Shown here in pieces: positions 1 through 11,403 of a stretch of DNA of 11,403 nt; position 1 is the first letter of the stretch, and each line of letters opens with the position of its first letter. The notes beneath the pieces are model-generated. The model was not told where the DNA came from and did not search any database. It was given only the letters and a program-made list of their open reading frames with translations. The position numbers and the translations under genes are program-made. Source of the stretch: Candidatus Wolframiiraptor gerlachensis. Its GTDB lineage: Archaea > Thermoproteota > Nitrososphaeria_A > Caldarchaeales > Wolframiiraptoraceae. The stretch is taken from positions 1 through 11,403 of the forward strand of contig JAJPCT020000015.1 of NCBI GenBank assembly GCA_021323375.2. The letters run 5' to 3'.

Positions 1-1
1 C

Positions 2-925
2 TTCGAGCTAGAAGCAAGCCCCGCGGACATAACTTTAGAAAGAGGAGGCTCCGCTGCTATTACATTAAAGCTTAAGGCGGCATTACTCGAGACCCCGGAA
101 AGCGGGGTGATACTGATTGTGGCAGACACAAGCGGATGCAAAATGACTAACATTACTACGGTGACGCGTGCGGCTAACATAACATACAGCACGACAGCAG
201 TAATTGGAGGAAGGGCAGTAGGAACAGTAACAATATGCACAAACATGTTTATTTGGTGTTTAGGCTGGACCACAATCACGTATGTTGCTGACCCAGCGAT
301 AATGACATTGGCTAATGCGAGCGTCGTCTATACAATCGAGACCTCAACAAGGATTAACAATTTTGTCGCGCAGCCGGAGCCTATCACCATAACACTCACG
401 ACCAGAACCAGAGCGACGATAACAAAGACGGTGACTTTGGATGCTATAAGTCTTGATTATTGGGATGAGTCCGCGGGATGTTATGTTTGGTTTAGGGTCC
501 TAAATGCAACGAGTGGAAGCAGGCTAGCAGAAGCAGGAGTAAGAGTGGCGGCGGTAACAGCAACGGCCATTACCACGACCACGGAAACAACAGCTCCAGT
601 ATCATATGTAGAGATAAACGTCATACAAGAGAGTGTTAGCGGCGGATTTAATGACGATAGGTCTGTGAATATAGAAGTTATAAGTCGTAATGGGTACGAG
701 GGAATAGTTACTCTTTCCTTCTCCGAAAGTGACGACGTTATTCATGTTCCTGAAGGTGCGGGCTGGGGCTTTGATGAAAATCCAGTTACACTTTCAGCAG
801 GAGAAACTAAGCTGGTGAATTTCAGGTTTAGAATTAGGGGTAGTGGGACAGTAACTATAAGTGGTTCTGCCAGCCCTTCAGCAATCGTCATACCAGACCA
901 ATTCACCGTAATTATTCAAACTTAG
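2..925 (+). CDS. Partial (5'-truncated) secreted/cell-surface protein with Thr-rich linkers and Ig-like beta-sandwich repeats
   Basis: The frame of ORF 107..925 stays open back to base 2 (FELEASPADITLERGGSAAITLKL...), so the gene starts left of the window. It has Thr-rich runs (TATAITTTTETT) and a C-terminal segment (SRNGYEGIVTLSF...NPVTLSAGET...VTISG) resembling archaeal Ig-like surface-protein repeats. Confidence 0.65.
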   Translation, partial: FELEASPADITLERGGSAAITLKLKAALLETPESGVILIVADTSGCKMTNITTVTRAANITYSTTAVIGGRAVGTVTICTNMFIWCLGWTTITYVADPAIMTLANASVVYTIETSTRINNFVAQPEPITITLTTRTRATITKTVTLDAISLDYWDESAGCYVWFRVLNATSGSRLAEAGVRVAAVTATAITTTTETTAPVSYVEINVIQESVSGGFNDDRSVNIEVISRNGYEGIVTLSFSESDDVIHVPEGAGWGFDENPVTLSAGETKLVNFRFRIRGSGTVTISGSASPSAIVIPDQFTVIIQT

Positions 926-988
926 CCAGTGCAGTGAACCCAGAAAAAGCTATTTGAGTAACTTAATTCGTTATCAGTGGATGCGGCT

Positions 989-1201
989 ATGTCTCAGAGG
1001 ATTTGTAAGATGGAGGAGAATTTGAGGAACTGCCTATGCACTTGGGAGCCATGTCCGCGTAAGGGGGTCTGCTGCGAGTGCCTGAGATACCACTGGAGCC
1101 ATCGAGAGCTCCCAGCATGCTTCTTCCCACCAGAGATCGAGAGGACCTATGACCGCTCCCTGAAAAGATTCATCGAATACTGGAGCAAGAAAGTCAAGTA
1201 G
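989..1201 (+). CDS. Small Cys-rich protein, DUF6485-like (probable metal binding)
   Basis: Motif NCLCTWEPCPRKGVCCECLRYH...ELPACFFP...TYDRS is typical of this family. ATG at 989 is preferred over GTG at 977. Confidence 0.75.
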   Translation: MSQRICKMEENLRNCLCTWEPCPRKGVCCECLRYHWSHRELPACFFPPEIERTYDRSLKRFIEYWSKKVK

Positions 1202-1228
1202 CCGACACGAGGAAAATGCCGACTCATC

Positions 1229-2020
1229 TCATCTTACTTTTGGTATTGGTGGTAGACCGCGCTTATGCTCATTCGCCCTAACCCTATCAACTATCATCCT
1301 TATCTTATCCCTGCTGATCCCGGTCATCTTGGCGACCTCGCCGAGCGGCATCCCGCGCTCAAAATGGAGGTAAAGCACCTGATCGATCTCATCATATCTC
1401 GCGCCTAGCTCATCCTCGGCAAGCTGCCCCGGCAATAGCCTCGGGCTACTCGGCTTCTCCGCGATCCTTGATGGTAGGCCGAGAATCTTTGCAAGCCTCC
1501 TGACCTGCGTCTTATAGATGTCACCGAGGGGCAGGATATCCGCCGCGCCATCACCATACTTCGTGAAGTATCCCAGCATTATCTCGCTCTTATCACTCGA
1601 TCCGCAGACGAGAAGCCGCTTAAGATTCGCGTAATAATAGAGGATCACCATCCTTATCCTCGCCCTCAGGTTCGCGTTCGCGGTATCAGCACCCTCGCTA
1701 TAAAAGCTCATGACACGGGAGAAGCAGTCATAGACCTCATCTATCGGGATGACGTGATATTCTATCCCGAGCATCTCGGCAAGCATCCTAGCATCCTCAA
1801 CATCCTCCATCGGGGTAACCCTGCTATCGGGCATGAGGAGGCCGTGAACCCTGCTTGGCCCAAGAGCCCTAACCGCGAGAGCACATGCGACCGATGAATC
1901 GAGGCCGCCACTCAGCCCAATCACCACGCCACCCATCCCAGAAACCCTAACATAGGATCTAAGAAACTCCGTAACCCTTTCAATCGCGAGTTCGGCGTCA
2001 AACGGTATGGTCAAGGCCAC
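1229..2020 (-). CDS. nadE: NH3-dependent NAD+ synthetase
   Basis: Contains GLSGGLDS ATP-pyrophosphatase loop, NLRARIRM, GYFTKYGDG, DIYKTQV and KPSSPRL, with no glutaminase domain. Start is uncertain (2056, 2020 or 2014); a T-rich box near 2040-2046 favours 2020 or 2014. Confidence 0.95.
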   Translation of the reverse strand: MALTIPFDAELAIERVTEFLRSYVRVSGMGGVVIGLSGGLDSSVACALAVRALGPSRVHGLLMPDSRVTPMEDVEDARMLAEMLGIEYHVIPIDEVYDCFSRVMSFYSEGADTANANLRARIRMVILYYYANLKRLLVCGSSDKSEIMLGYFTKYGDGAADILPLGDIYKTQVRRLAKILGLPSRIAEKPSSPRLLPGQLAEDELGARYDEIDQVLYLHFERGMPLGEVAKMTGISRDKIRMIVDRVRANEHKRGLPPIPKVR

Positions 2021-2117
2021 CCGAACCCCCACAAAAACCCTAAAAACCCTCCTCAAAACAATATCGAGACAGGCGGCCTCCTGCAGACAAGAAGCTATTC
2101 GAGATTCACATAGCTTA

Positions 2118-2150
2118 AGGATGGAAAAGGAGGGGATAAAGGGGGATGAT
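2118..2150 (-). terminator. Pyrimidine-rich tract, probable terminator of the island transcript
   Basis: Minus strand reads ATCATCCCCCTTTATCCCCTCCTTTTCCATCC immediately after the closing stem of the structured RNA. Archaeal terminators are typically pyrimidine/U-rich. Confidence 0.45.
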
Positions 2151-2282
2151 TGGCCGACGAGCTATCGTAGCCGGCCCGGCGGGAACTAACCTTCCAAACC
2201 ACCGTGGATCCATGAACCATGGATCCACAGCGGGAGCGTCCTTCTAACCACCGGCCCTCCGGCTTTTACTGCCCGCCGGCCA
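2151..2282 (-). ncRNA. Structured RNA with a single bridge-RNA/tigRNA-like two-guide internal loop
   Basis: Four nested stems on the minus strand: 2282-2271/2162-2151 (12 bp), 2264-2259/2174-2169 (6 bp), 2254-2248/2182-2176 (7 bp) and 2233-2218/2214-2199 (16 bp, GUU loop). Five pairs are G-U on the minus strand and would be A-C mismatches on plus, which fixes the strand. The last two stems enclose a 14x16-nt loop whose strands are both framed GGTGG-TT-[guide]-..C-CCGC. It lies directly downstream of the IS110-like ORF. Confidence 0.8.
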
Positions 2283-2919
2283 GCATATATCGTCTTTGCT
2301 GCCATGACTTCTTTAAAACTCTTAGTATCTTTATTTCAAGTGTGCGAAGACCTTTATTATTGTTAATTACTTCCTTAAGTAACTCAGTTTTGTTAAAGCG
2401 TTTGCTATTGAGATAGAGATTTACTGCAAGTCTTGAAAGATATTCGCGTAGCTTGTGATTATAGCAGTTATTATCTTTGTATGGTGCTAGGCCCAATAGG
2501 CCTTTCAGCCTTCTAAGCTTCCAATTTAACGGTAATCTTGCCACTAGTATCGCGACCTCAACACTATCCTTGACTCCTATCATATCGCATGCCAGCCTAT
2601 ATATCGTCGCGTAGTTCTCATCATTTTTAATTTCCTTGATTATCTTACGGCCATGGTGTTCGGCTAAGGAGCGAAGCCTTCTAGCACACTCCTTGAAGGG
2701 ATCCGGACAGATCCGCATCCATTGCTGGACAGTCTTCCTCCATTTAACATACCTCTCATACTCTCCGATTAATCTCAATAGGTTTAACTCTCTTAATGTA
2801 AGCTGTTTGAAGTGATTTCTCGGGATCATGCTCAGGAGTTTTGCATCGACCTCATCAGACTTCTTAACCCTATTCTCCTCTGCTGGGATGGCGGTATCAA
2901 TAAAAAATATTCTACTCAT
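2266..2919 (-). CDS. Compact IS110-family/Tas-like protein (partial DEDD RuvC motif, helical linker, Tnp_20/Nop-like C-terminal domain); possibly internally deleted
   Basis: KSDEVDAKLL matches IS110 K-T/S-D-x-x-D-A. LLGLAP...YNHKLREYL matches GLxP...GNxxLR. ATG 2919 follows a GGAGGTGA ribosome-binding site and overlaps the upstream ORF end. The region is visibly more AT-rich than the flanking core genes. Confidence 0.65.
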   Translation of the reverse strand: MSRIFFIDTAIPAEENRVKKSDEVDAKLLSMIPRNHFKQLTLRELNLLRLIGEYERYVKWRKTVQQWMRICPDPFKECARRLRSLAEHHGRKIIKEIKNDENYATIYRLACDMIGVKDSVEVAILVARLPLNWKLRRLKGLLGLAPYKDNNCYNHKLREYLSRLAVNLYLNSKRFNKTELLKEVINNNKGLRTLEIKILRVLKKSWQQRRYMLAGGQ

Positions 2920-3100
2920 GGTCCTCAATCACCTCCTTAAGTTCGTCGCATAGTGTTTTCATCGTTGATTCTCTGATAAATTTCCTAAATGTCTTGGCGA
3001 AATCCTCGATCGTGCCAAGATCCTCGAGGACAAATATCCTGGCTAAGACCCTAGGCAACCGCATCCCCACATATCCCGATACAGCCCCTCCCTTATTCAT
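2912..3100 (-). CDS. Small putative ribbon-helix-helix (CopG-like) DNA-binding protein
   Basis: Only the C-terminal part of ORF 2912..3328 looks protein-like: SGYVGMRLPRVLARIF...TIEDFAKTFRKFIRE fits a beta-strand/helix/helix pattern. It is coupled to the IS110-like ORF (ATGAGTAG overlap). Start is 3100 or 3064. Confidence 0.4.
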   Translation of the reverse strand: MNKGGAVSGYVGMRLPRVLARIFVLEDLGTIEDFAKTFRKFIRESTMKTLCDELKEVIEDHE

Positions 3101-3142
3101 TGAGGGCCATCCCGAAAATGAAGGCCCCCTATCTTGAGGGGG

Positions 3143-3451
3143 GTGAGGTGTCTGGGCTGGGACGAGGAGAGATACGAGATCAGGCATAATGTGGATAAGA
3201 AGGATGAGTAAAAAGATGGAGGTGTGTAAGAGGATTTTCCCGGAGAGTATGAGCGGGATAGACCCGGAGAAGAGGAATATATTAACTATGACGAGAGGGC
3301 TACCGGAGGGGGGAGCCTGATCCGTCATAGTATCTTGAGCCTAGGTGAATTGGAGAAGGCTGCGGAGAGATATTATGTCAGGAAGGCTATCAACGAGATA
3401 CTAGACTACATCATGACCATCGCACTAAACGCTCTCCCAAGAAAGCAGTAA
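3143..3451 (+). pseudogene. Probable decayed plus-strand gene
   Basis: Purine-rich plus strand. Protein-like fragments in two frames (MEVCKRIFPESMSGIDPEKRNILTM; LSLGELEKAAERYYVRKAINEILDYIMTIALNALPRKQ*) end 9 nt before the next ATG (3461) and are interrupted by stops or a frameshift. Confidence 0.35.
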
Positions 3452-3460
3452 GGGGAGGGG

Positions 3461-3745
3461 ATGGATGCTAGGATGATTGTCCTAGCACCAGTCGATGGAG
3501 ACCCTAGGATTCAGGAGTTCGCCTTAAGGCCCCTAATAATCACGACGATTGATAGGAAGGGTAAGATCAAGAAATTCCTGCATATTGAGAAGCATGAGGC
3601 CGCATGTGATCTATGCAGAGGTCTTATAGCCCTTATGAGGAGGAAGCTTGGGGAACGGACTAGGGGTTGTGCAATTATTATGAATGGCCGGCTAGTCCAG
3701 ATAATATGCAGGGAGTGTAGAAAACGGTTCTGGGTGTGGGCTTAA
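3461..3745 (+). CDS. Small hypothetical protein with two CxxC pairs (putative Zn ribbon)
   Basis: CDLC...CREC motifs; G-rich RBS-like GGGGAGGGG directly upstream of the ATG. Confidence 0.6.
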   Translation: MDARMIVLAPVDGDPRIQEFALRPLIITTIDRKGKIKKFLHIEKHEAACDLCRGLIALMRRKLGERTRGCAIIMNGRLVQIICRECRKRFWVWA

Positions 3746-3864
3746 TGAGTATGGATGTCTTGAGGATTCTTGAAGGAGTATGGTAGGTGAAAGGCGGAGG
3801 CTCTTACCACTTATGGACTGGGTAGCGGGAGGAAGCAAAGCTAGGTAAGGGGGTCACGGATAAG

Positions 3865-4068
3865 TTGAAGAGGATGGGGTTCAGGATACCTACCATGTTA
3901 GAGATCTGGGATGAGCATTGTATCGAGAAGAACATCTATTTCATAGACTCGTCGGATAGGATCTATGTGGCAAGATTAAGATGGAGATGTGCTGTCTTGA
4001 AGGCCGCAGAAGGGGAAACACTAAAAGAATACTACCTCGAGACAGCCGAGATAAAAGGGGGATACTAA
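3865..4068 (+). CDS. Hypothetical protein or gene fragment
   Basis: 67-aa ORF, co-oriented with the upstream ORF, TTG start, no recognisable motif. Confidence 0.3.
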   Translation: MKRMGFRIPTMLEIWDEHCIEKNIYFIDSSDRIYVARLRWRCAVLKAAEGETLKEYYLETAEIKGGY

Positions 4069-4097
4069 AACCTCGCGTTTATTGGGTAGCAGTCCTC

Positions 4098-4112
4098 ATA
4101 AATCTTAAAATA
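4098..4112 (+). promoter_or_regulatory. Putative BRE/TATA promoter of the tRNA gene
   Basis: ATAAATC-TTAAAATA, with the TATA-like box at 4105-4112, about 26-33 nt upstream of tRNA G1 (4138). Confidence 0.6.
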
Positions 4113-4137
4113 AAGCATCATTAGATTCATTATTTGA

Positions 4138-4276
<139 letters not shown>

Positions 4277-4308
4277 TCTTAAAAACACCCCACCAGCATG
4301 GAATAATT

Positions 4309-5568
4309 GTGAAGGGGGCATGTCTTCTCTTAGAGATGTTTTCCGACATCTTTGGCTTGGGATCGGGTGTCGTGGTGGTCTCGGCCCCGGGTAGGGCGGA
4401 CTTCCTGAATACTCACCAGGATTATAAGGGGCTTCCCGTGGTCCCGGTTGCTGTTCGCCTCAGATGCTATGCTGTGGGCGCGTTGAATAATTCTAGGATG
4501 GTGAGAGTTGCGAGCCTGAACCTGAAGGAGATGGGTGAGGATTATCGAGACGAGTTTAGCCTTGATGATTTGAGGCTCGTTGGTGGGGGATGGTTTGGCG
4601 ACTATGTGAGGGCTGTGATGAAATCGATCATGGATCAAGGTCATCATTTAGATGGGATGGATATCGTGATCTGGAGCGAGGTCCCGGTGGGCGCCGGCCT
4701 ATCCAGTAGCGCTTCTCTCGAGATCTCGATCGCCAAGCTCGCATCCGAGCTATGCGGCCTAAACCTTGACAGGAGGAGCTTAGCCGAGATAGGGTATAGG
4801 GCTGAGCATGATATCATGGGGATACCATGCGGCAGGCTGGATCAGTATGCATCGGCCTTCGGGGGCGTAATAGTGCTCGAAACGAGGCCGCCATTCAAGG
4901 TCGAGAAGTTTGAGGCCAGAGACCTGACATTCGTGATCACGGACTCGGGCGAGCATCGCAGGATAATCTCAGTCCACCCAATAAGACAAAGCGAGATAAA
5001 TGAGGTTCTCAGGATATTGATTGAGGAGGTTAAGCCCCCGCACGAGATCATGCAGCACCTCGCTCACAACTATTATGAGACAAGATGGGAGTATCTCGTT
5101 GACTTACTGGAACCCTACCTTGAAACAGTCCAGAAGAGGTTCGCCGACAGGATAAGATTCACGCTAAGGATGCATAAGTCGACGCTATACGCGATAGAGC
5201 TTCTTAGGGGCGCTAGGCCGAGTAGGGAGGGCTTCATCAAAGCGGTTGGCGAGGATTTCGCGAGAGAACATATGATAGACTTCTCGGACAGGCTCCAGGT
5301 GATCGGCGCGATAATGAACTATCAGCATATATTGCTTAGGGACTTGTATGAGGTCAGCACTCCGAGGCTGGAGGATCTTAGGGACACGCTCTTAGAGGCT
5401 GGGGCGCTTGGCGCGAAGATCTCTGGAGCAGGTATGGGCGGGGCAATAATAGCTTTAGCCAGGGATATTGAGTCTGGTGAGGCCATAAAGAGAGCATGCG
5501 CTAAGAAGGGCTACACCTCAGCCTGGGTCTCAACACCAGATGAGGGGGCTAGAATAGAAACACCCTAA
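4309..5568 (+). CDS. galK: Galactokinase-like GHMP kinase
   Basis: Contains SAPGRADFLNTHQDY (variant of GRVNLIGEHTDY), PVGAGLSSSA, CGRLDQY and GAKISGAGMGG, and lies next to galE and galT. The track start at 4231 is inside the tRNA; the real start is GTG 4309 (about 30 nt after TTAAAAA at 4279, leaderless) or ATG 4336. Confidence 0.8.
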   Translation: MKGACLLLEMFSDIFGLGSGVVVVSAPGRADFLNTHQDYKGLPVVPVAVRLRCYAVGALNNSRMVRVASLNLKEMGEDYRDEFSLDDLRLVGGGWFGDYVRAVMKSIMDQGHHLDGMDIVIWSEVPVGAGLSSSASLEISIAKLASELCGLNLDRRSLAEIGYRAEHDIMGIPCGRLDQYASAFGGVIVLETRPPFKVEKFEARDLTFVITDSGEHRRIISVHPIRQSEINEVLRILIEEVKPPHEIMQHLAHNYYETRWEYLVDLLEPYLETVQKRFADRIRFTLRMHKSTLYAIELLRGARPSREGFIKAVGEDFAREHMIDFSDRLQVIGAIMNYQHILLRDLYEVSTPRLEDLRDTLLEAGALGAKISGAGMGGAIIALARDIESGEAIKRACAKKGYTSAWVSTPDEGARIETP

Positions 5569-5597
5569 TTCACGATTCTTGTGGAGATGGTGGGGCG

Positions 5598-6545
5598 GTG
5601 GCGGGTTTGAGGGTTCTCGTAACCGGGGGTGCGGGCTTCATCGGAAGCCATCTCGTAGACGCTCTCATGAAGTCGGGATATGAGGTCAGGGTCGTTGATA
5701 ATCTCAGCCAAGGAAGGATCGAGAATATCTCAAGGTGGATGGGGAGACCGGGCTTCGAGTTCATAAAGGGAGACGTGACTGACGAGGATCTAATGCGGGA
5801 GGCGGCCAAGTCCTGCGACGCCGTCTTCCATCTTGCGGCGAACCCTGAGGTTAGACTTGGAGATCCGAGAATACATTATAAAGGGAATGTTCACGCAACT
5901 TATGTTGTCCTCGAGGCGATGAGGGCTAATGATGTGAGGAAGATAGTGTTTACATCATCCTCAACAGTTTATGGTGAGGCGAGGATAATGCCGACCCCGG
6001 AGGACTACTCCCCACTCCTCCCGATATCCATGTATGGCGCCTGTAAGCTCGCGAGCGAGGCTCTTATCACAGGATACTGTATGATGTATGATATGGGGGC
6101 TGTGATACTGAGACTCGCAAACATCGTTGGATCACGGGCGCAGCATGGCGTCATAGTAGACTTCATCAGGAAGCTTCGCTCAAATCCAAGAAGGCTCGAG
6201 GTTCTCGGGGATGGGGAGCAGACCAAGTCATATCTCCTTGTCGAGGATTGTGTGGAGGCGATTCTAAGGGCTTTTGAGAACCTTGACAGCGGCGTCGAGA
6301 TCTATAACATAGGATCGGAGGATGCGATAAACGTGAAGACGATAGCGCGGATAGTTATCGAGGAGCTTGGTCTCGAGGATGTCGAGATAGTCTATACAGG
6401 CGGGATTGAGGGGAGAGGCTGGAGGGGCGATGTGAGGAGAATGCTCCTCGACATATCCAAGATTAAGAATTTAGGTTGGAGGCCGAGGCATAATAGCGCC
6501 GAGTCCGTGAGGCTGGCAACGAGAGTACTGAAGGAGGAGCTTTAG
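5598..6545 (+). CDS. galE: NAD-dependent epimerase/dehydratase, probably UDP-glucose 4-epimerase
   Basis: TGGAGFIG Rossmann motif, HLAA, FTSSSTVYG and YGACK (YxxxK); located between the galK-like gene and galT. Confidence 0.85.
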   Translation: MAGLRVLVTGGAGFIGSHLVDALMKSGYEVRVVDNLSQGRIENISRWMGRPGFEFIKGDVTDEDLMREAAKSCDAVFHLAANPEVRLGDPRIHYKGNVHATYVVLEAMRANDVRKIVFTSSSTVYGEARIMPTPEDYSPLLPISMYGACKLASEALITGYCMMYDMGAVILRLANIVGSRAQHGVIVDFIRKLRSNPRRLEVLGDGEQTKSYLLVEDCVEAILRAFENLDSGVEIYNIGSEDAINVKTIARIVIEELGLEDVEIVYTGGIEGRGWRGDVRRMLLDISKIKNLGWRPRHNSAESVRLATRVLKEEL

Positions 6546-6547
6546 CA

Positions 6548-7531
6548 ATGTCGCATGAGCTTAGATGGAACCCGCTCCTGAGATGCTGGACGATAGTTGC
6601 TGGCCGGAGGATCAAGAGACCTTGGAGATCTGGTGAGTGCCCATTCTGCCCTGGCGGAGAAGAGACGATGGGCTCATGGAAAGTTCTCGCCCTCCCGAAC
6701 AAATATCCAGCACTCTCGCCAAGTGCTCCAGAGGTATTCGGGGATAACATATTTGGCAGAGCAAGGGCCCTCGGAGAGTGCGAGGTGATCATCGAGGCGC
6801 CTCAACATGAGGGTGACTTCCCCGACTTCCCCCTAGACCAAGTGACCCTCTACATAGAATTACTGGCTGAGAGGACAAGTATCCTGAGCGCGAAGCCCTA
6901 TATCAAGTGCGTGATACCATTCAAGAATAAGGGGGCGTTGATAGGGGTCTCGCTAACTCATCCCCATAGCCAGATTTACGCGCTCCCATTTATACCTCCT
7001 AGGATAGCGAGAGAGCTGGAGTCAGCCGAGAACTATTGGAAAGAGCATGGTAGAAGCATATTCGACGACATACTAGCGAGGGAACTCGAGGAGGGATCTA
7101 GGACGATCTACGAGAACGACTCGTTTATAATCTTCATGCCATTCTTCGTGATGTGGCCATATGAAATGCATATATATCCAAAGATCGGCGCCGCATCCCT
7201 CCCAGAACTCGGCCGCGCGGATCAGGAGATGCTCGCGGACGCGATAAGGGTGGCGGTCAAGATCTATGAGGAGATGTTCGGCAGGGACTGCGCATATATG
7301 ATGATATTCCACCAGGCTCCATCCGACGGCGAATACCCATATTATAGGCTCCACGTGGAGTTCTATACGCCCCACTTCACGAGCGATAGGATCAAGTATG
7401 CTGCGGGGATAGAGTGGGGTGCCTGGGTCTTCACATATGATGGAGTGCCGGAGGAGAGGGCTGGAGAGCTTAGGGCAGCGGCGAGAAGAGCGCTTGAGAA
7501 GCTGGATCATCTAGGTGGAGTTCTCGGCTGA
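6548..7531 (+). CDS. galT: Galactose-1-phosphate uridylyltransferase
   Basis: ELRWNPL...R..RP, CPFCPG, NKYPAL and the catalytic SLTHPHSQIY (HPH) motif. Confidence 0.93.
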   Translation: MSHELRWNPLLRCWTIVAGRRIKRPWRSGECPFCPGGEETMGSWKVLALPNKYPALSPSAPEVFGDNIFGRARALGECEVIIEAPQHEGDFPDFPLDQVTLYIELLAERTSILSAKPYIKCVIPFKNKGALIGVSLTHPHSQIYALPFIPPRIARELESAENYWKEHGRSIFDDILARELEEGSRTIYENDSFIIFMPFFVMWPYEMHIYPKIGAASLPELGRADQEMLADAIRVAVKIYEEMFGRDCAYMMIFHQAPSDGEYPYYRLHVEFYTPHFTSDRIKYAAGIEWGAWVFTYDGVPEERAGELRAAARRALEKLDHLGGVLG

Positions 7532-8455
7532 TCGGGCGGCCAATCTCGATACGAGCTTACAATAGCTGCACATGTTTGAGAGGGATGGCATCCCACATTT
7601 CTCGCATTCCGTGAGGCTGGGCTCGGGCACGGTCTTCTCGAGTCTCGGCAGAATCCTCTTCACATGCGACTTGTAGAGCATGTGCTTGAACCCGGGTATC
7701 TCGCGCTCGATCAATCCTATTAGCCTCTTTCTCCTAAGCATCCGGGAGCCCTTGGCAAGCGGACATGAAGCAGCTAGAAGCGGGATTCCCTGGGCCATGG
7801 CATAATACATGTTCTCCCTCTCCGTCAGCTCTATGAGCGGCTTTATCTTCGTGACCATCTTCGGGTTATCGCTCCACGAGACAGGCCTAACCCTCACGAG
7901 ATCCTCAACAGAGCCCTTGAGATAGAACTCGAAGAGCAGCTCCACGACATCATCAAGATTGTGGCCTGTTGCCAGCCTATCCGATCCTATCTCATAAGCC
8001 AGCCTATTCATTAGATACCGCTTAACAGTCCCACACGCGCCGCAGATCCTCCTGCCCAAGGGCGTAGACTTGAGATCCGGAATCCTATAACCCTCCCTGC
8101 TCGATAGATCATAAATAACATGCTCGATGCCTAGATCCTCACAGACATTCTCAACTATCTCTTGGCACCTCTCCGAGTAGCCCTCTATGCCGAGGTTTAT
8201 GTGGATGGCTATGAGCTTGATGCCGGGGAACTTCTCAGAGACAAGCCTATTCATGGCGGCTAGCAGGGCCATGCTATCCTTCCCACCGGATACGGCTACG
8301 GTAACCCTCCCGGCCCCGCGAAGCATCCCATACTTCATTATCGTGTTATAGATCTTCTTCTCATAATACTTGATGAAGCAGTCTCGGCAAAGCATCATCT
8401 TAGCATGTTCTATGAGATAGGCGGCTTGACTGCTGCAGAGTCTGCACGAGGTCAT
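7511..8455 (-). CDS. ttuA: TtuA/Ncs6-family tRNA 2-thiolation enzyme
   Basis: N-terminal CRLC/CRDC, SGGKDS PP-loop, CGACG, ATGHNLDD, SCP and C-terminal CEKC/CSYC zinc finger. ATG 8455 is preferred over 8464. Confidence 0.85.
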   Translation of the reverse strand: MTSCRLCSSQAAYLIEHAKMMLCRDCFIKYYEKKIYNTIMKYGMLRGAGRVTVAVSGGKDSMALLAAMNRLVSEKFPGIKLIAIHINLGIEGYSERCQEIVENVCEDLGIEHVIYDLSSREGYRIPDLKSTPLGRRICGACGTVKRYLMNRLAYEIGSDRLATGHNLDDVVELLFEFYLKGSVEDLVRVRPVSWSDNPKMVTKIKPLIELTERENMYYAMAQGIPLLAASCPLAKGSRMLRRKRLIGLIEREIPGFKHMLYKSHVKRILPRLEKTVPEPSLTECEKCGMPSLSNMCSYCKLVSRLAARSAENST

Positions 8456-8472
8456 TCCCGCCAAGATTATCT

Positions 8473-9729
8473 CTAGATCTCGTATTTATGATGCTTCTCG
8501 GGGACGATGGCGTCCAAGCTCAGCTCATTTCTAGCATACTCCGCTAAATCACGGCAGGCATCGGGCTCGCCATGAATCGTGAAGACCTTTGTACTTGGAT
8601 TCAGGTTCCTGAGATAGGATCTGAGCTCGCTCCTGCCGGAATGGGCGCTGAAGAGGAACTGCCTTACCCTCGCCTTAACCTCGACATCCTCTCCCTTCAC
8701 GGTTATCCTGCCCTCTTCTAGGAGCCGTGCGCCCGGAGTCCCCGGAACTTGGAAGCTCACGAGGAATATCCCAGAATATGGGTCATCATATATCCTCTCA
8801 AGATAGTATGCAGCCGGCCCTCCCTTAAGCATCCCAGCCGGGCTTATGATCACCGCCTGGTTCTCAGCAGCCTTCTTACGCTTCCTCCTATCATTCACTC
8901 TTATCACGTGTTTTGAGGCCGAGTAGAGGAGTTGATATCCCTGAACATACTCCTTTGACTCTAGGAAGAGGTCAAGAACCTTGACAGCCATACCATCCAA
9001 GTAGACGGACTTCCTCACACTATAGGCCTCCAAGACGCACATGATCTCCTGCGACCTAGCGACTGCGAAGGCTGGAACTAGAACCCTCCCACCGAGATCA
9101 ATAACCTCGATGACATTATTTATGAAGTCTTTCTCGAGGTCAGCCCTCTTCGGATGCTCGGTTAACGCGTAAGTCGACTCGGTGACAACCGCGTCAACAT
9201 CCTTCGGCATGTCCTTGGCGCCGGATAGAAGCCTTGTCTTACGCGTTGAGTAGTCTCCCGTATATAGCAGGGTTTTATCAGCATTTACTAGGACTTGGAC
9301 GCTTCCCGGTATATGGCCCGCGTCGAGAAAGGTGATCTCAGCATCTTTCACCCTTATCGTGTCGCCGTAATCCACCCTTATCCCCCTTCTTAGGAGCTCC
9401 TCGACCTCTAGAACCTCATAGGGAATATAGTATCCGCTCAGCTTCAGGAAGTCCCTGAGAAGTATGTCGCTTAGCTTGAAGGTCATGTCTGTCGCGTAAA
9501 CCTTGACCCCTCCATTCAGCATCAATAATGGCGCGGCGCCGCTATGATCTAGATGAGCATGTGTGATTATCACGGCGTCGAGATCCTTGGGCGAGATATG
9601 GCCCGGAAAGAGTGGCTCAGGCTCCGAGGGCTTAACACCATAGTCCAGCAGTATCCTAGCATCCCTAGTCTCGACTAGAACTGCGGCTCTCCCAACCTCT
9701 CCAACCCCGCCGAGAAAACTTACCTTCAT
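8473..9729 (-). CDS. beta-CASP metallo-beta-lactamase ribonuclease (aCPSF2-like, no KH domains)
   Basis: GGVGEVGR, LDYG, THAHLDHSG, AGHIPGS, YTGD, ESTY, FSAH and IHGE motifs; 418 aa. Confidence 0.9.
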   Translation of the reverse strand: MKVSFLGGVGEVGRAAVLVETRDARILLDYGVKPSEPEPLFPGHISPKDLDAVIITHAHLDHSGAAPLLMLNGGVKVYATDMTFKLSDILLRDFLKLSGYYIPYEVLEVEELLRRGIRVDYGDTIRVKDAEITFLDAGHIPGSVQVLVNADKTLLYTGDYSTRKTRLLSGAKDMPKDVDAVVTESTYALTEHPKRADLEKDFINNVIEVIDLGGRVLVPAFAVARSQEIMCVLEAYSVRKSVYLDGMAVKVLDLFLESKEYVQGYQLLYSASKHVIRVNDRRKRKKAAENQAVIISPAGMLKGGPAAYYLERIYDDPYSGIFLVSFQVPGTPGARLLEEGRITVKGEDVEVKARVRQFLFSAHSGRSELRSYLRNLNPSTKVFTIHGEPDACRDLAEYARNELSLDAIVPEKHHKYEI

Positions 9730-9792
9730 GCCTGTTTCAACACGCGCCTAAGCCTTTTCCAGCCTTCCTGTTACGGGCGCTCGGCCCAATTC

Positions 9793-11376
9793 TTAAACAT
9801 TGCGGCCTGCCCCGCCGCCGGAGCCGCTCATCAGCTCCTTAAGGCTCTCAAGTTCCCTCACCTCAACACCCAGCTCCCTCAACCTCCTAGCAAGCTCCTT
9901 CTCAAATATCTCCAAGCGCCTCGTCTCGGGCTTGAGGATATATGCTCCCTTATAGCCGGCGGCCTCAAACTGCTTAATCGCCTCCGCGATAAGCTCATCG
10001 AGGCACTCATCGAGCAGCGCCTTGGGATAATTTGTCTGGGAGAGTGGATAGGTGTATCTGAGGCCGAGGGGGATTAAGCCATAAGGGCTGCCATAGAAGA
10101 GTATGTCGAGGTTTTCGGGAAGTCTTGACGCCTTCTCTAGGGAGAGCTTCAGGGTCTCGGGGAGAAGCAGGGCCTCTCCGCCGCGTCCCCTCCCAGCGAG
10201 ACAGTTCTCGAGAAGCCTCCTCCTCGTGGCTCTCACAAGAGGCCTCCTCAAGCTCATCTCATCATAGAGGTTTACACCCCTCCTCCCGGAGATCGGCGCA
10301 TTCTCCTCCATCAGCCTCAGCAGATCCTCATTCTGCATAATCTCGATAAACCCTTGATAGAGGCTTGGATGACTTCTCGCCCTCTGCTCAAGCAGCTCCA
10401 TGAGCCTTCCATCCCTTATCGCCTGTTTAACCCTCCTAACTTCCATGAAGCAGATATGGAGATTATGCATCGCGAGCATCCTAATCCTCTCATTCCTCGG
10501 AAGCTGCTTGAGCTCGGCCGCGCTCATCTTGGAGCATATTGGGCAGCAGCATGGCAGATAGTCAAGCTTCTCCACCCTTATCGTCCCGGTCTCCGTCATG
10601 TATCTATCATCCCGGGCATAGAGAATATAGCTAGCGGAGTCGAACATATCCACGCCCAAAGCAACTATGAATGGAAAGATCATGGGGTGGCCGGCTCCAA
10701 ATAGGTGCAGGGGCTCCCCAAAGCCCACCGCAGACCTGGCAGCATATATCATCTGGAACAGTTTATCGAATCTGTACTCCTCCATTAGGGGCGTTGGGCT
10801 TCCGAGTGCATAGAGGTCGAAGCCCATCTCCCTCTCCTTATTAGCGCAGCGATGGACGAGATCTAGGTGAATTCCGCCCTGAATCGGCGCGGCCCATAAA
10901 CATCGCCTAACACCCCTTCTTCTCAAAAACTCGATAGTCGCCTCGAGATTCCTCAACGTCCTCTCGACGGATTCCTCAGCCTTTTCCCTGCTACATAGCC
11001 CAGTCGGAATATCTAGGGGGACGGCGATATCACTGCCGATCTCCTCCTGAAGCTCCGCGATCTCCTCCGGGGAGGCCTCAACACCACCATACTCTAGGAC
11101 CTGGTATCCGCCGCTATCAGTCATCACCACACCGTCGAAGCCTAGGACCCCATGAACCCCCTTTCTCAAGGCCTCATCCCTAAGCCTCCTCAGGATAATG
11201 TATGCATTCGTTATCACAGCCTCTGCTCCAAGGTTCTCCCTCATCCAGCCTGCTGGAACATCCTGCGTAACCGGGTTTATGACCGGGAGGAAGAGCGGCG
11301 TCTCAGCAACCCTTCCACCGCGAGTCCTAAGCCTCCCAATCCTTCCAAGATGATCCTCAGCAATTATCTCGAACAA
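9793..11376 (-). CDS. tgtA: Archaeosine tRNA-guanine(15) transglycosylase, short form without a recognisable PUA domain
   Basis: ETPLFLPVINP, MTDSGGYQ, PIQGG, HLFGAGHP, GVDMFDSASY, zinc site CCCPIC...HNL and C-terminal PYGLIP...TYPLSQT. Confidence 0.93.
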   Translation of the reverse strand: MFEIIAEDHLGRIGRLRTRGGRVAETPLFLPVINPVTQDVPAGWMRENLGAEAVITNAYIILRRLRDEALRKGVHGVLGFDGVVMTDSGGYQVLEYGGVEASPEEIAELQEEIGSDIAVPLDIPTGLCSREKAEESVERTLRNLEATIEFLRRRGVRRCLWAAPIQGGIHLDLVHRCANKEREMGFDLYALGSPTPLMEEYRFDKLFQMIYAARSAVGFGEPLHLFGAGHPMIFPFIVALGVDMFDSASYILYARDDRYMTETGTIRVEKLDYLPCCCPICSKMSAAELKQLPRNERIRMLAMHNLHICFMEVRRVKQAIRDGRLMELLEQRARSHPSLYQGFIEIMQNEDLLRLMEENAPISGRRGVNLYDEMSLRRPLVRATRRRLLENCLAGRGRGGEALLLPETLKLSLEKASRLPENLDILFYGSPYGLIPLGLRYTYPLSQTNYPKALLDECLDELIAEAIKQFEAAGYKGAYILKPETRRLEIFEKELARRLRELGVEVRELESLKELMSGSGGGAGRNV

Positions 11377-11403
11377 GGAACTCCCTCGAGATCAGGCCAT
11401 ACT

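Follow-up and report, generated by a model that had tools for sequence, protein, structure and literature searches.

A probable insertion-site guide RNA with a single two-stranded loop in a multicopy mobile element of hot-spring archaea

The gene described here encodes an RNA that is probably the guide of a small, multicopy mobile element of Caldarchaeales-type hot-spring archaea, with the two strands of its single internal loop specifying the insertion site. Such an RNA had been pointed out, by inspection of the letters alone, in a stretch of 11,403 nucleotides from Candidatus Wolframiiraptor gerlachensis (assembly GCA_021323375.2, contig JAJPCT020000015.1, positions 1 to 11,403; hereafter the window, to which all unlabeled coordinates refer). 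We confirm the single-loop architecture at 2150 to 2283 on the minus strand, and our results support the overall interpretation given in that original prediction. The case is built on the structure of the RNA, its linkage to a protein gene, the fold relationship of the encoded protein, a presence/absence polymorphism of the element, and the match between the loop strands and their targets.

An RNA with one pseudosymmetric loop overlaps the end of a protein gene

The RNA is 134 nt long and is encoded on the minus strand, at a locus where Rfam recognizes no family and ARAGORN no tRNA. Its parts are listed below (RNA position p corresponds to window position 2284 − p).

2150 to 2283, minus strand: putative guide RNA gene, 134 nt, one of a family of 26 loci (fold z-score of −4.38, covariance model, covariation)
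2271 to 2283, minus strand: 5' strand of helix P1 (RNA positions 1 to 13, paired with 122 to 134), overlapping the last ORF codons, LAGGQ
2150 to 2162, minus strand: 3' strand of helix P1 (RNA positions 122 to 134; fold, covariation)
2234 to 2247, minus strand: loop strand V1, UUAGAAGGACGCUC, putative guide (RNA positions 37 to 50), hypervariable among copies
2199 to 2233, minus strand: hairpin P4, which closes the guide loop (RNA positions 51 to 85); both sides changed in 6 of 10 pairs
2183 to 2198, minus strand: loop strand V2, UUUGGAAGGUUAGUUC, putative guide (RNA positions 86 to 101), able to pair with the tRNA-Gly sense strand

Folding of both strands, which had been proposed as a check, favored the minus strand, with a minimum free energy of −79.3 kcal/mol that none of 200 shuffled sequences reached; the plus strand of the same interval gave a weaker z-score (−3.15 versus −4.38). 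Four helices (P1 to P4) with five G-U pairs enclose one large internal loop formed by V1 and V2. P1 is followed by a symmetric 6 × 6 internal loop (AGUAAA/ACGAUA) and then by P2, and P3 pairs RNA positions 30 to 36 with 102 to 108. The G-U pairs (G8-U127, G11-U124, U34-G104, G53-U83, and U55-G81) are strand specific, since the plus strand would have A-C mismatches in their place. Both loop strands stand in the frame GGUGG-V-CCGC(C), which yields an imperfect direct repeat (2180 to 2204 and 2231 to 2253), and the pseudosymmetry arises from the pairing of the first GGUGG with the second CCGCC in P3 and of the first CCGC with the second GGUGG in P4. The end of the adjacent ORF (2266 to 2928, minus strand; stop codon at 2266 to 2268) overlaps P1 because its last codons (L, A, G, G, Q, and stop) are RNA positions 1 to 18, and the C-terminal AGG tail is retained even in protein relatives of ~20% identity. 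An unannotated RNA of ~130 nt on the strand of the ORF, four stems with five strand-specific G-U pairs, a frame shared by the loop strands with its imperfect direct repeat, and an outermost stem built from the last ORF codons (LAGG) had all been read correctly.

Covariation and gene linkage define an RNA family

DNA searches of 41 genomes recovered copies of the RNA element in 3, the genome of origin and 2 of the 13 others from its genus. We aligned 22 copies from the genome of origin, after dropping a 23rd (C26:17240) that is a 3' fragment only, and used 18 of the genome's copies in the RNA alignment (A3). RNAalifold found 34 pairs in these 18 copies, 14 of them with compensatory change. When the four-helix structure is imposed on them, 95.5% of the cells pair, versus 17 to 44% when the partners are slid by one to three columns, and 12 pairs are changed on both sides, versus 6.1 ± 1.7 in shuffled alignments (0 of 500 reach 12). 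A covariance model (R1) gave 40 matches in the genome of origin, corresponding to 26 loci; it scores the window RNA at 108.2 bits on the minus strand and at 41.8 bits on the plus strand, the hits on both strands being due to 13-bp terminal inverted repeats and the long palindrome. Eighteen of the 26 loci lie between −14 and +117 nt behind a same-strand family ORF or its remnant, and the other 8 are solo units.

The same arrangement recurs in distant metagenome-assembled genomes (Geocrenenecus, Nitrososphaeria, and Caldarchaeales) with partner ORFs of 36 to 46% identity, where the covariance model detects the RNA behind the partner ORF at all 16 loci and scores the ORF strand higher at 14 of them. 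The two exceptions, L119:668-805 and L118:3379-3491, fit the model better opposite to the ORF strand (108.6 versus 52.8 bits for L119), which suggests that the RNA module was inverted between its terminal inverted repeats. Twenty-six RNAs outside the model building (matches came from 25 of the 26 sources supplied) pair in 94.4% of cells and show changes on both sides in 29 of 32 pairs, in an alignment that was fitted to the covariance model and whose members are kin; their best strand has 52 G-U pairs versus 27 on the opposite strand, where 90.9% of cells pair. The helices thus covary both in the genome's own copies and at distant loci, a test that the original prediction had suggested, with the proviso that the counts are not independent events because the copies are paralogs. 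The structure is far beyond chance, and what is seen is a gene family and not a chance fold.

A partner protein with the build of TasR and IS110 recombinases

The gene that the RNA overlaps is as follows.

2266 to 2928, minus strand: partner ORF, 217 aa from MSRIFF, deletion derivative of a ~290-aa TasR/IS110-like protein (comparison with P0001; family fold)

Its relatives are mostly 286 to 297 aa long. The protein P0001 (286 aa, 96% identical to the window ORF) has 69 extra residues after IPA, and the corresponding deletion in the window protein spans residues 14 to 82, most of the N-terminal (nuclease) domain; the window copy is defective because of this internal deletion. The interlocking of ORF and RNA noted at the outset stands, with the correction that the partner ORF is a deletion derivative.

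The window ORF has no Pfam hit, and sequence and profile searches of Pfam, NCBIfam, and PDB with it and with alignments A1 and A2 of the family returned nothing at threshold. IS621 was found only at an E value of 0.23, and weak, collinear matches to IS110 models (E = 0.0078 to 0.042) were confined to three distant members. A profile search of 1.84 billion representatives recovered only 216 proteins at E ≤ 0.001, and the language-model neighbors of the protein carry the IS110 domains PF02371 and PF01548. In profile-profile comparisons with hhalign, alignment A2 matched 10 archaeal IS110 proteins (12 loci, of which 2 yielded no ORF) with probabilities of 92.5% in local and 96.8% in global mode, and 22 Nop5 proteins with 6% and 38%, respectively; the shallow alignment A1 gave 1.6%. 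The IS110 comparison aligns VDVA with GIDV and KSDEVDA with KTDkxDA, and the serine segment of IS110 (P..qSG) lands in a 12-residue gap of the family. D8, E46, D50, K90, and D92, among others, are invariant in 63 close members; in a set of 37 diverse members, R83, K90, and D95 never vary and D8 and D50 hardly do, and the region of the IS110 serine has no conserved Ser or Tyr.

An AlphaFold model of the intact protein of a related copy (C5; pLDDT of 94.0, pTM of 0.89) has ISCro4, IS621, and TasR as its top Foldseek matches (E = 3e-8 to 2e-7). VIA-align gave Z scores of 17.2 for TasR (9mty_A; 256 aligned residues, span of 3 to 288), 16.1 for ISCro4, 16.1 for IS621, 14 to 15 (14.8) for TasH (span of 111 to 286), 6.0 to 6.6 for Nop5, and 6.3 for Prp31. 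An N-terminal RuvC-like DEDD domain is present, given the IS110-type fold match over residues 1 to 283 and the conservation of D8, D50, and D95, and at the level of the modeled fold the family appears to combine this RuvC nuclease domain with a Nop-type domain bearing a coiled coil. A homodimer prediction for the protein scored 0.40 (mark, 0.42). Because these comparisons place TasR, ISCro4, and IS621 highest, we assign the family a TasR/IS110 build; judged by its alignments, it keeps the RuvC-type acidic residues and is without the IS110 serine hairpin, and together with the missing Pfam hit this sets it apart from canonical IS110.

The element is present or absent between genomes and is flanked by short duplications

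Comparison with sister genomes delimits the element in the window.

2079 to 4137, minus strand: inserted segment, ~2.06 kb, absent from the sister genomes G005 and G011 (empty-site comparison)
2079 to 2149, minus strand: element tail, C-rich and then T-rich, reaching the right junction, its first part conserved among copies (empty-site comparison)
2073 to 2078: direct repeat GCGGCC, NadE-side copy, a remnant of tRNA positions 1 to 7 (empty-site comparison)
4138 to 4143: direct repeat GCGGCC, tRNA-side copy, the first tRNA bases (empty-site comparison)
2912 to 3139, minus strand: small upstream ORF, a remnant, which precedes the partner gene in other copies (tblastn to other copies)

In both sister genomes NadE is followed ~20 nt later by an intact, intron-free tRNA-Gly(UCC) gene, and in the window the element is inserted after tRNA position 7, flanked by GCGGCC. 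The small leader ORF, for which we found no family hit, encodes 94 aa when intact (L041:3003-3287), and in many copies it extends into the start of the partner gene. The inserted segment also contains two short plus-strand ORFs, at 3461 to 3745 (94 aa; blank in a Pfam scan) and 3865 to 4068 (67 aa); the C5 copy has part of this region as well.

Of 76 genomes examined in the class, 32 contain the family, which is distributed patchily by genus and reaches 27 to 31 matches per genome, many with internal stops. Further empty sites resolve insertions of 1,598 nt with a 5-bp duplication (C1:50974), 1,583 nt with a 3- to 4-bp duplication (C3:33538), and 2,019 nt with a 5-bp duplication (C25:28374), as well as a solo unit of ~270 to 290 nt before a 5S rRNA gene (C25:78755). 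At one more, with an 8-bp duplication, the junctions are split between contigs (C16:117114 and C23:2358) whose flanks are contiguous in G005. The duplicated core thus varies between copies in both sequence and length (3 to 8 bp). The two copies at the split site (C16:116297-117343 and C23:1474-2621 of G000; L137 and L138) have V1 in common, differ in V2, and are otherwise near-identical; in G005 one copy's left flank runs directly into the other's right flank, which implies that recombination between copies of the element has rearranged the chromosome. When contigs from four DNA runs were compared with window positions 1500 to 4700, no clear joint across the element emerged, only joints among unrelated tRNAs.

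The loop strands match the two halves of the insertion site

V strands from different copies show no relationship to one another. At empty sites they match the two halves of the target on opposite DNA strands, and we therefore read them as guides, in keeping with the guide loop that had been proposed. The empty site at C1:50974 reads CTTAGCCGAG-CTTCTTTCTGACC: V2 equals the left half at 10 of 10 positions, and the right half agrees with the reverse complement of V1 at 13 of 14, the lone mismatch being U-G. At C3:33538 the two halves, GATATTGAAT (V2) and GAATGCTGAT (V1 complement), match at 10 of 10 positions each and overlap at the core. One half is matched at C23:2358 (V2 complement, 11 of 11 at the right junction, with the 8-bp duplication) and at C25:78755 (10 of 10, 8 nt off the junction), and at C25:28374, which is among the six copies for which an empty site is available, the guides do not match their own site. 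The junction-resolved matches thus cover both halves in two copies and one half in two. Four other loci, without empty sites, have matches to both half-sites at element-length distance (C10:17582, C10:11591, L115, and L117).

We also counted matches scoring at least 9 around the 22 copies of the genome of origin, relative to the expectation from shuffled guides.

Complement, downstream: 10 observed, 2.2 expected
Same sense, upstream: 10 observed, 3.9 expected
Complement, upstream: 3 observed, 3.1 expected
Same sense, downstream: 4 observed, 2.7 expected

Exact matches of at least 9 nt in 26 independent RNAs, a count uncontrolled by shuffling, are distributed as 16 complement-downstream, 11 same-upstream, 2 same-downstream, and 2 complement-upstream. 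Many copies have a match for just one of their two guides, and both element orientations occur at the sites, as expected from the pseudosymmetry of the loop. Scanning the whole genome for guide matches with two or fewer mismatches returned mostly background; in none of 12 cases was a partner guide found within 160 nt of a match above the shuffled level, the apparent matches being the RNA gene itself. Most guide targets are protein genes or spacers, and many matches lie at the edges of neighboring genes. Solo RNA units of G000 lie just upstream of a 5S rRNA gene (C25:78756-78888) and of a tRNA gene (C7:3341-3469), and each has one guide that matches the opening bases of the adjoining RNA gene.

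The window copy and its tRNA-Gly gene

The relevant features on the tRNA side of the window are the following.

4138 to 4274, plus strand: tRNA-Gly(UCC) gene with three small insertions that the intron-free gene of G005 and G011 lacks (Rfam tRNA, 32 bits)
4157 to 4219, plus strand: putative guide target region, with the V1-sense half as GAA (4157 to 4159) plus GGACGCT (4185 to 4191) and the V2-complementary half at 4209 to 4219

The guides of the window copy, whose protein is defective, would address the very tRNA-Gly gene that it occupies. In the empty site, V1 (GAAGGACGCU) agrees with the tRNA-Gly sense strand at 10 of 10 bases, corresponding to GAAGGACGCT of that strand, and directly beside this half-site V2 pairs with GGCCTTCCGAG of the sense strand through 7 Watson-Crick and 4 G-U pairs. 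The half-sites are 1 nt apart in the intron-free gene, on which the two guides reach a dual-site score of 21.5, versus at most 19.5 anywhere in the genome of origin. This best guide site does not coincide with the apparent junction, from which it is 13 nt away. The three insertions of the resident gene (4160 to 4184, 25 nt; 4193 to 4209, 17 nt; and 4219 to 4239, ~21 nt) sit inside the V1 site, between the half-sites, and just behind the V2 site, respectively. In G002, which has the same element insertion, the tRNA has only the 17-nt insertion. A tRNA-Gly(CCC) gene adjoins the C5 copy in the same arrangement; by eye, the complement of V2 from that copy agrees with the intron-free form at 13 of 14 positions, and the copy's dual-site score on the tRNA gene of G013 is 17.5, below the genome maximum of 21.0.

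Two readings accommodate the structure in the window. In one, the element was inserted at tRNA position 7 and the intron gain was a separate event; in the other, insertion took place at the guide-specified GGCC, and the element brought along a promoter and a replacement for the 5' part of the tRNA. The latter corresponds to the model put forward for a similar 1.8-kb element by Sugahara et al. (PMC3293823). At the far end of the element (4098 to 4137), an A/T-rich box (cttaaaata) lies ~30 nt before the tRNA start and is conserved in the C5 copy; it may serve the tRNA as a substitute promoter. Adjacency to a tRNA is not general, since ARAGORN found no tRNA gene near any of the 16 distant loci.

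One loop per RNA

A single internal loop is present in all 18 and 26 aligned RNAs. We looked for a donor guide, as a second, donor-binding loop would have pointed to an ordinary bridge RNA, and in the junction-resolved C1:50974 element neither the RNA, at 8 nt or more, nor any other segment was found to match the sequence formed by joining its ends. The proposal of one guide loop without a second donor loop thus agrees with every aligned copy and with this junction. The left ends of the C3:33538 and C1:50974 elements (L140 and L136) carry a degenerate copy of their own target a few bases inside (e.g., GATATT-CTGAT), which might be left over from an earlier site or might serve as a recognition sequence on the donor side.

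Relationship to known systems

The likening to a single TIGR-type unit is apt because the fold of the protein ties it to both TasR and the IS110 recombinases, and the Z scores given above (17.2 and 16.1) bear that suggestion out. With TIGR-Tas the archaeal family shares, besides the TasR fold, a protein size of ~290 aa, two spacers per unit that address adjacent sites on opposite DNA strands, and a guide unit that can overlap the effector gene. It differs in having one unit per gene and no tandem array, in its unit of ~134 nt with four long helices, GGUGG/CCGCC frames, and no identified box C/D-like motifs, in its archaeal host and its nature as a multicopy mobile element with guides that match its own insertion site, and in an N-terminal domain whose sequence can be aligned with the DEDD domain of IS110. 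TasR makes a staggered cut that leaves 8-nt overhangs, according to Faure et al. (2025, PMC12045711), and a cut of this kind would fit the 3- to 8-bp duplications of the archaeal family.

With IS110/IS1111 elements (structures 8wt6 and 9t56) it shares the fold (Z of 16.1), the hhalign probabilities of 92 to 97% with KSDxxDA aligned to KTDxxDA, an RNA encoded at the element end, and, in the bridge RNA, internal-loop strands that read the left and right halves of the target, each on a different DNA strand, around a core. The differences are the absence of the serine hairpin, the single loop with no donor loop found, the variable duplicated core (3 to 8 bp), and the absence of any match to PF01548, PF02371, or NF033542 at the curated cutoff. 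The resemblance of the RNA to TnpB/IscB omega-RNA lies in the overlap of a guide RNA with the 3' end of a mobile-element nuclease gene; those systems differ in their unrelated fold, their single guide derived from flanking DNA, and their separate transposase.

The box C/D small RNP (Nop5; Vaysset et al., 10.1101/2024.06.21.599552) is alike in its pseudosymmetric two-guide geometry, in its archaeal host, and in a distant structural match over the Nop-type domain. It differs in that no K-turn or C/D boxes were identified in the element RNA and in that the family keeps the RuvC acidic residues, the RuvC-like domain of Nop5 being inactive, and targets DNA, not RNA. The likeness to box C/D RNAs noted in the original prediction therefore holds for the two-guide symmetry, and for the RNPs it is a distant one only (Z of 6.0 to 6.6 for Nop5). 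We rejected an H/ACA-type pocket (no ACA box, strands too long, V1 in the tRNA sense) and took a weak sR14 C/D match at 3263 to 3309 (E = 0.48) as chance.

A similar element is the multicopy insertion of 1.8 kb at a tRNA-Thr gene of Caldiarchaeum subterraneum, with a ~270-aa ORF and a conserved upstream region, described by Sugahara et al. (2012, PMC3293823). It has a 5' tRNA fragment on one side and an intron-gaining tRNA on the other, and intron gain via integration was proposed. By that description it resembles the present elements in archaeal group, size (1.8 to 2 kb), copy number, and tRNA setting. The same paper suggests an origin from a pNOB8-type integrase and reports no RNA and no link to IS110 or TasR. 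Our literature search found no description of this archaeal family as RNA guided; supplementary lists of tas and IS110 homologs might include it.

Alternative explanations

Could the family instead be a DNA-binding unit of the TIGR-Tas type, for instance a repressor or a defense component, with no role in mobility and with its neighboring matches serving gene regulation? TasR is the best structural match, many guide matches lie at the edges of neighboring genes, and a preprint (10.64898/2026.09.09.750476) describes stem-loop tigRNA units that can be located within tas genes, as well as TasR proteins of the stem-loop type that act as repressors. We still consider this unlikely, given that the halves are contiguous at the empty sites with the element exactly between them and a duplication, that the family is patchy and of high copy number with many broken copies, and that there is one unit per gene and no array. 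An ordinary IS110/IS1111 element whose two-loop bridge (seek) RNA has been seen only in half, with the donor loop elsewhere in the element, is a quite improbable reading. The distant homology and shared fold with IS110 recombinases, the weak IS110 model matches, and the language-model neighbors with PF02371 and PF01548 would all accord with it; it conflicts with the missing serine-bearing segment, where no Ser or Tyr is conserved, with the lack of a Pfam or NCBIfam match at threshold, with a conserved RNA that is one-looped in all copies and has no match of at least 8 nt to the joined ends at C1:50974, and with a duplicated core that changes in sequence and length.

That the locus is a palindrome at the DNA level, never made into RNA, such as a MITE-like end or a protein-binding site whose variable strands are captured target sequence, strikes us as very improbable. 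The excess of strand-specific G-U pairs (52 versus 27) and of paired cells (94.4 versus 90.9%), the strong asymmetry of the model scores (108 versus 42 bits for the window), and a conserved asymmetric loop, AGUAAA/ACGAUA, that has no palindromic counterpart weigh more in our view than the 13-bp terminal inverted repeats, the long palindrome with model hits on both strands, and the eight solo copies from which this idea draws its appeal. We give hardly any credence to a box C/D- or H/ACA-like guide for the modification or processing of tRNA or 5S rRNA. Some guide matches do fall within a tRNA or 5S rRNA gene, the two-guide loop resembles box C/D and H/ACA RNAs, and Nop5 and Prp31 are weak structural matches (Z of 6.0 to 6.6), but V1 of the window is in the tRNA sense and is therefore unable to base-pair with that tRNA, protein genes and spacers make up most of the targets, no Rfam family is matched, and hhalign gives only 6% (local) and 38% (global) against Nop5.

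A proposed mode of insertion and its implications

The likely reading thus remains that the RNA guides insertion of the element. The element would carry a small leader ORF, a gene for a ~290-aa protein, and an RNA gene overlapping the end of that gene, and the RNA would offer two variable strands of 13 to 17 nt in a single internal loop. One guide strand would pair with the bottom DNA strand of the left target half and the other with the top strand of the right half, and the element would land exactly where the half-sites meet, flanked by the duplication of 3 to 8 bp. By analogy with TasR, a protein dimer may hold one RNA; we infer that its RuvC sites would make a staggered cut, the filling-in of which would give the duplication. 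We read the RNA as related to, and simpler than, bacterial bridge RNAs and TIGR guide RNAs, and the system as a variant within the IS110/TIGR-Tas kind.

A wider joint reading seems to us doubtful as a whole: the family would be a living link between TasR-type nucleases and IS110 transposition that moves by its RuvC-type site alone, through staggered cut and fill-in and without serine recombinase or donor loop, that aims at tRNA genes with replacement tRNA parts and so drives intron gain and fragmentation of tRNA genes, and that may sit near the archaeal lineage that gave rise to Nop5 and the box C/D guides.

If the preferred reading is right, self-propagation would be a natural role for a TasR-like RNA-guided protein; the biological role of TIGR-Tas systems is left open by Faure et al. 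(2025, PMC12045711). To go by the matches at the empty sites, one dual-guide loop would suffice to specify an insertion site of ~20 to 24 bp without a PAM-like motif, with a protein of 290 aa and an RNA of 134 nt, a compactness that would interest genome engineers. The relationships among IS110, TIGR-Tas, and box C/D systems would become testable. Finally, the element is a candidate sequence-specific agent for the gathering of introns and the fragmentation of genes among archaeal tRNAs, a long-standing puzzle; in the window the guides match the intron-free tRNA, and the resident tRNA has its insertions precisely within and next to the guide site.
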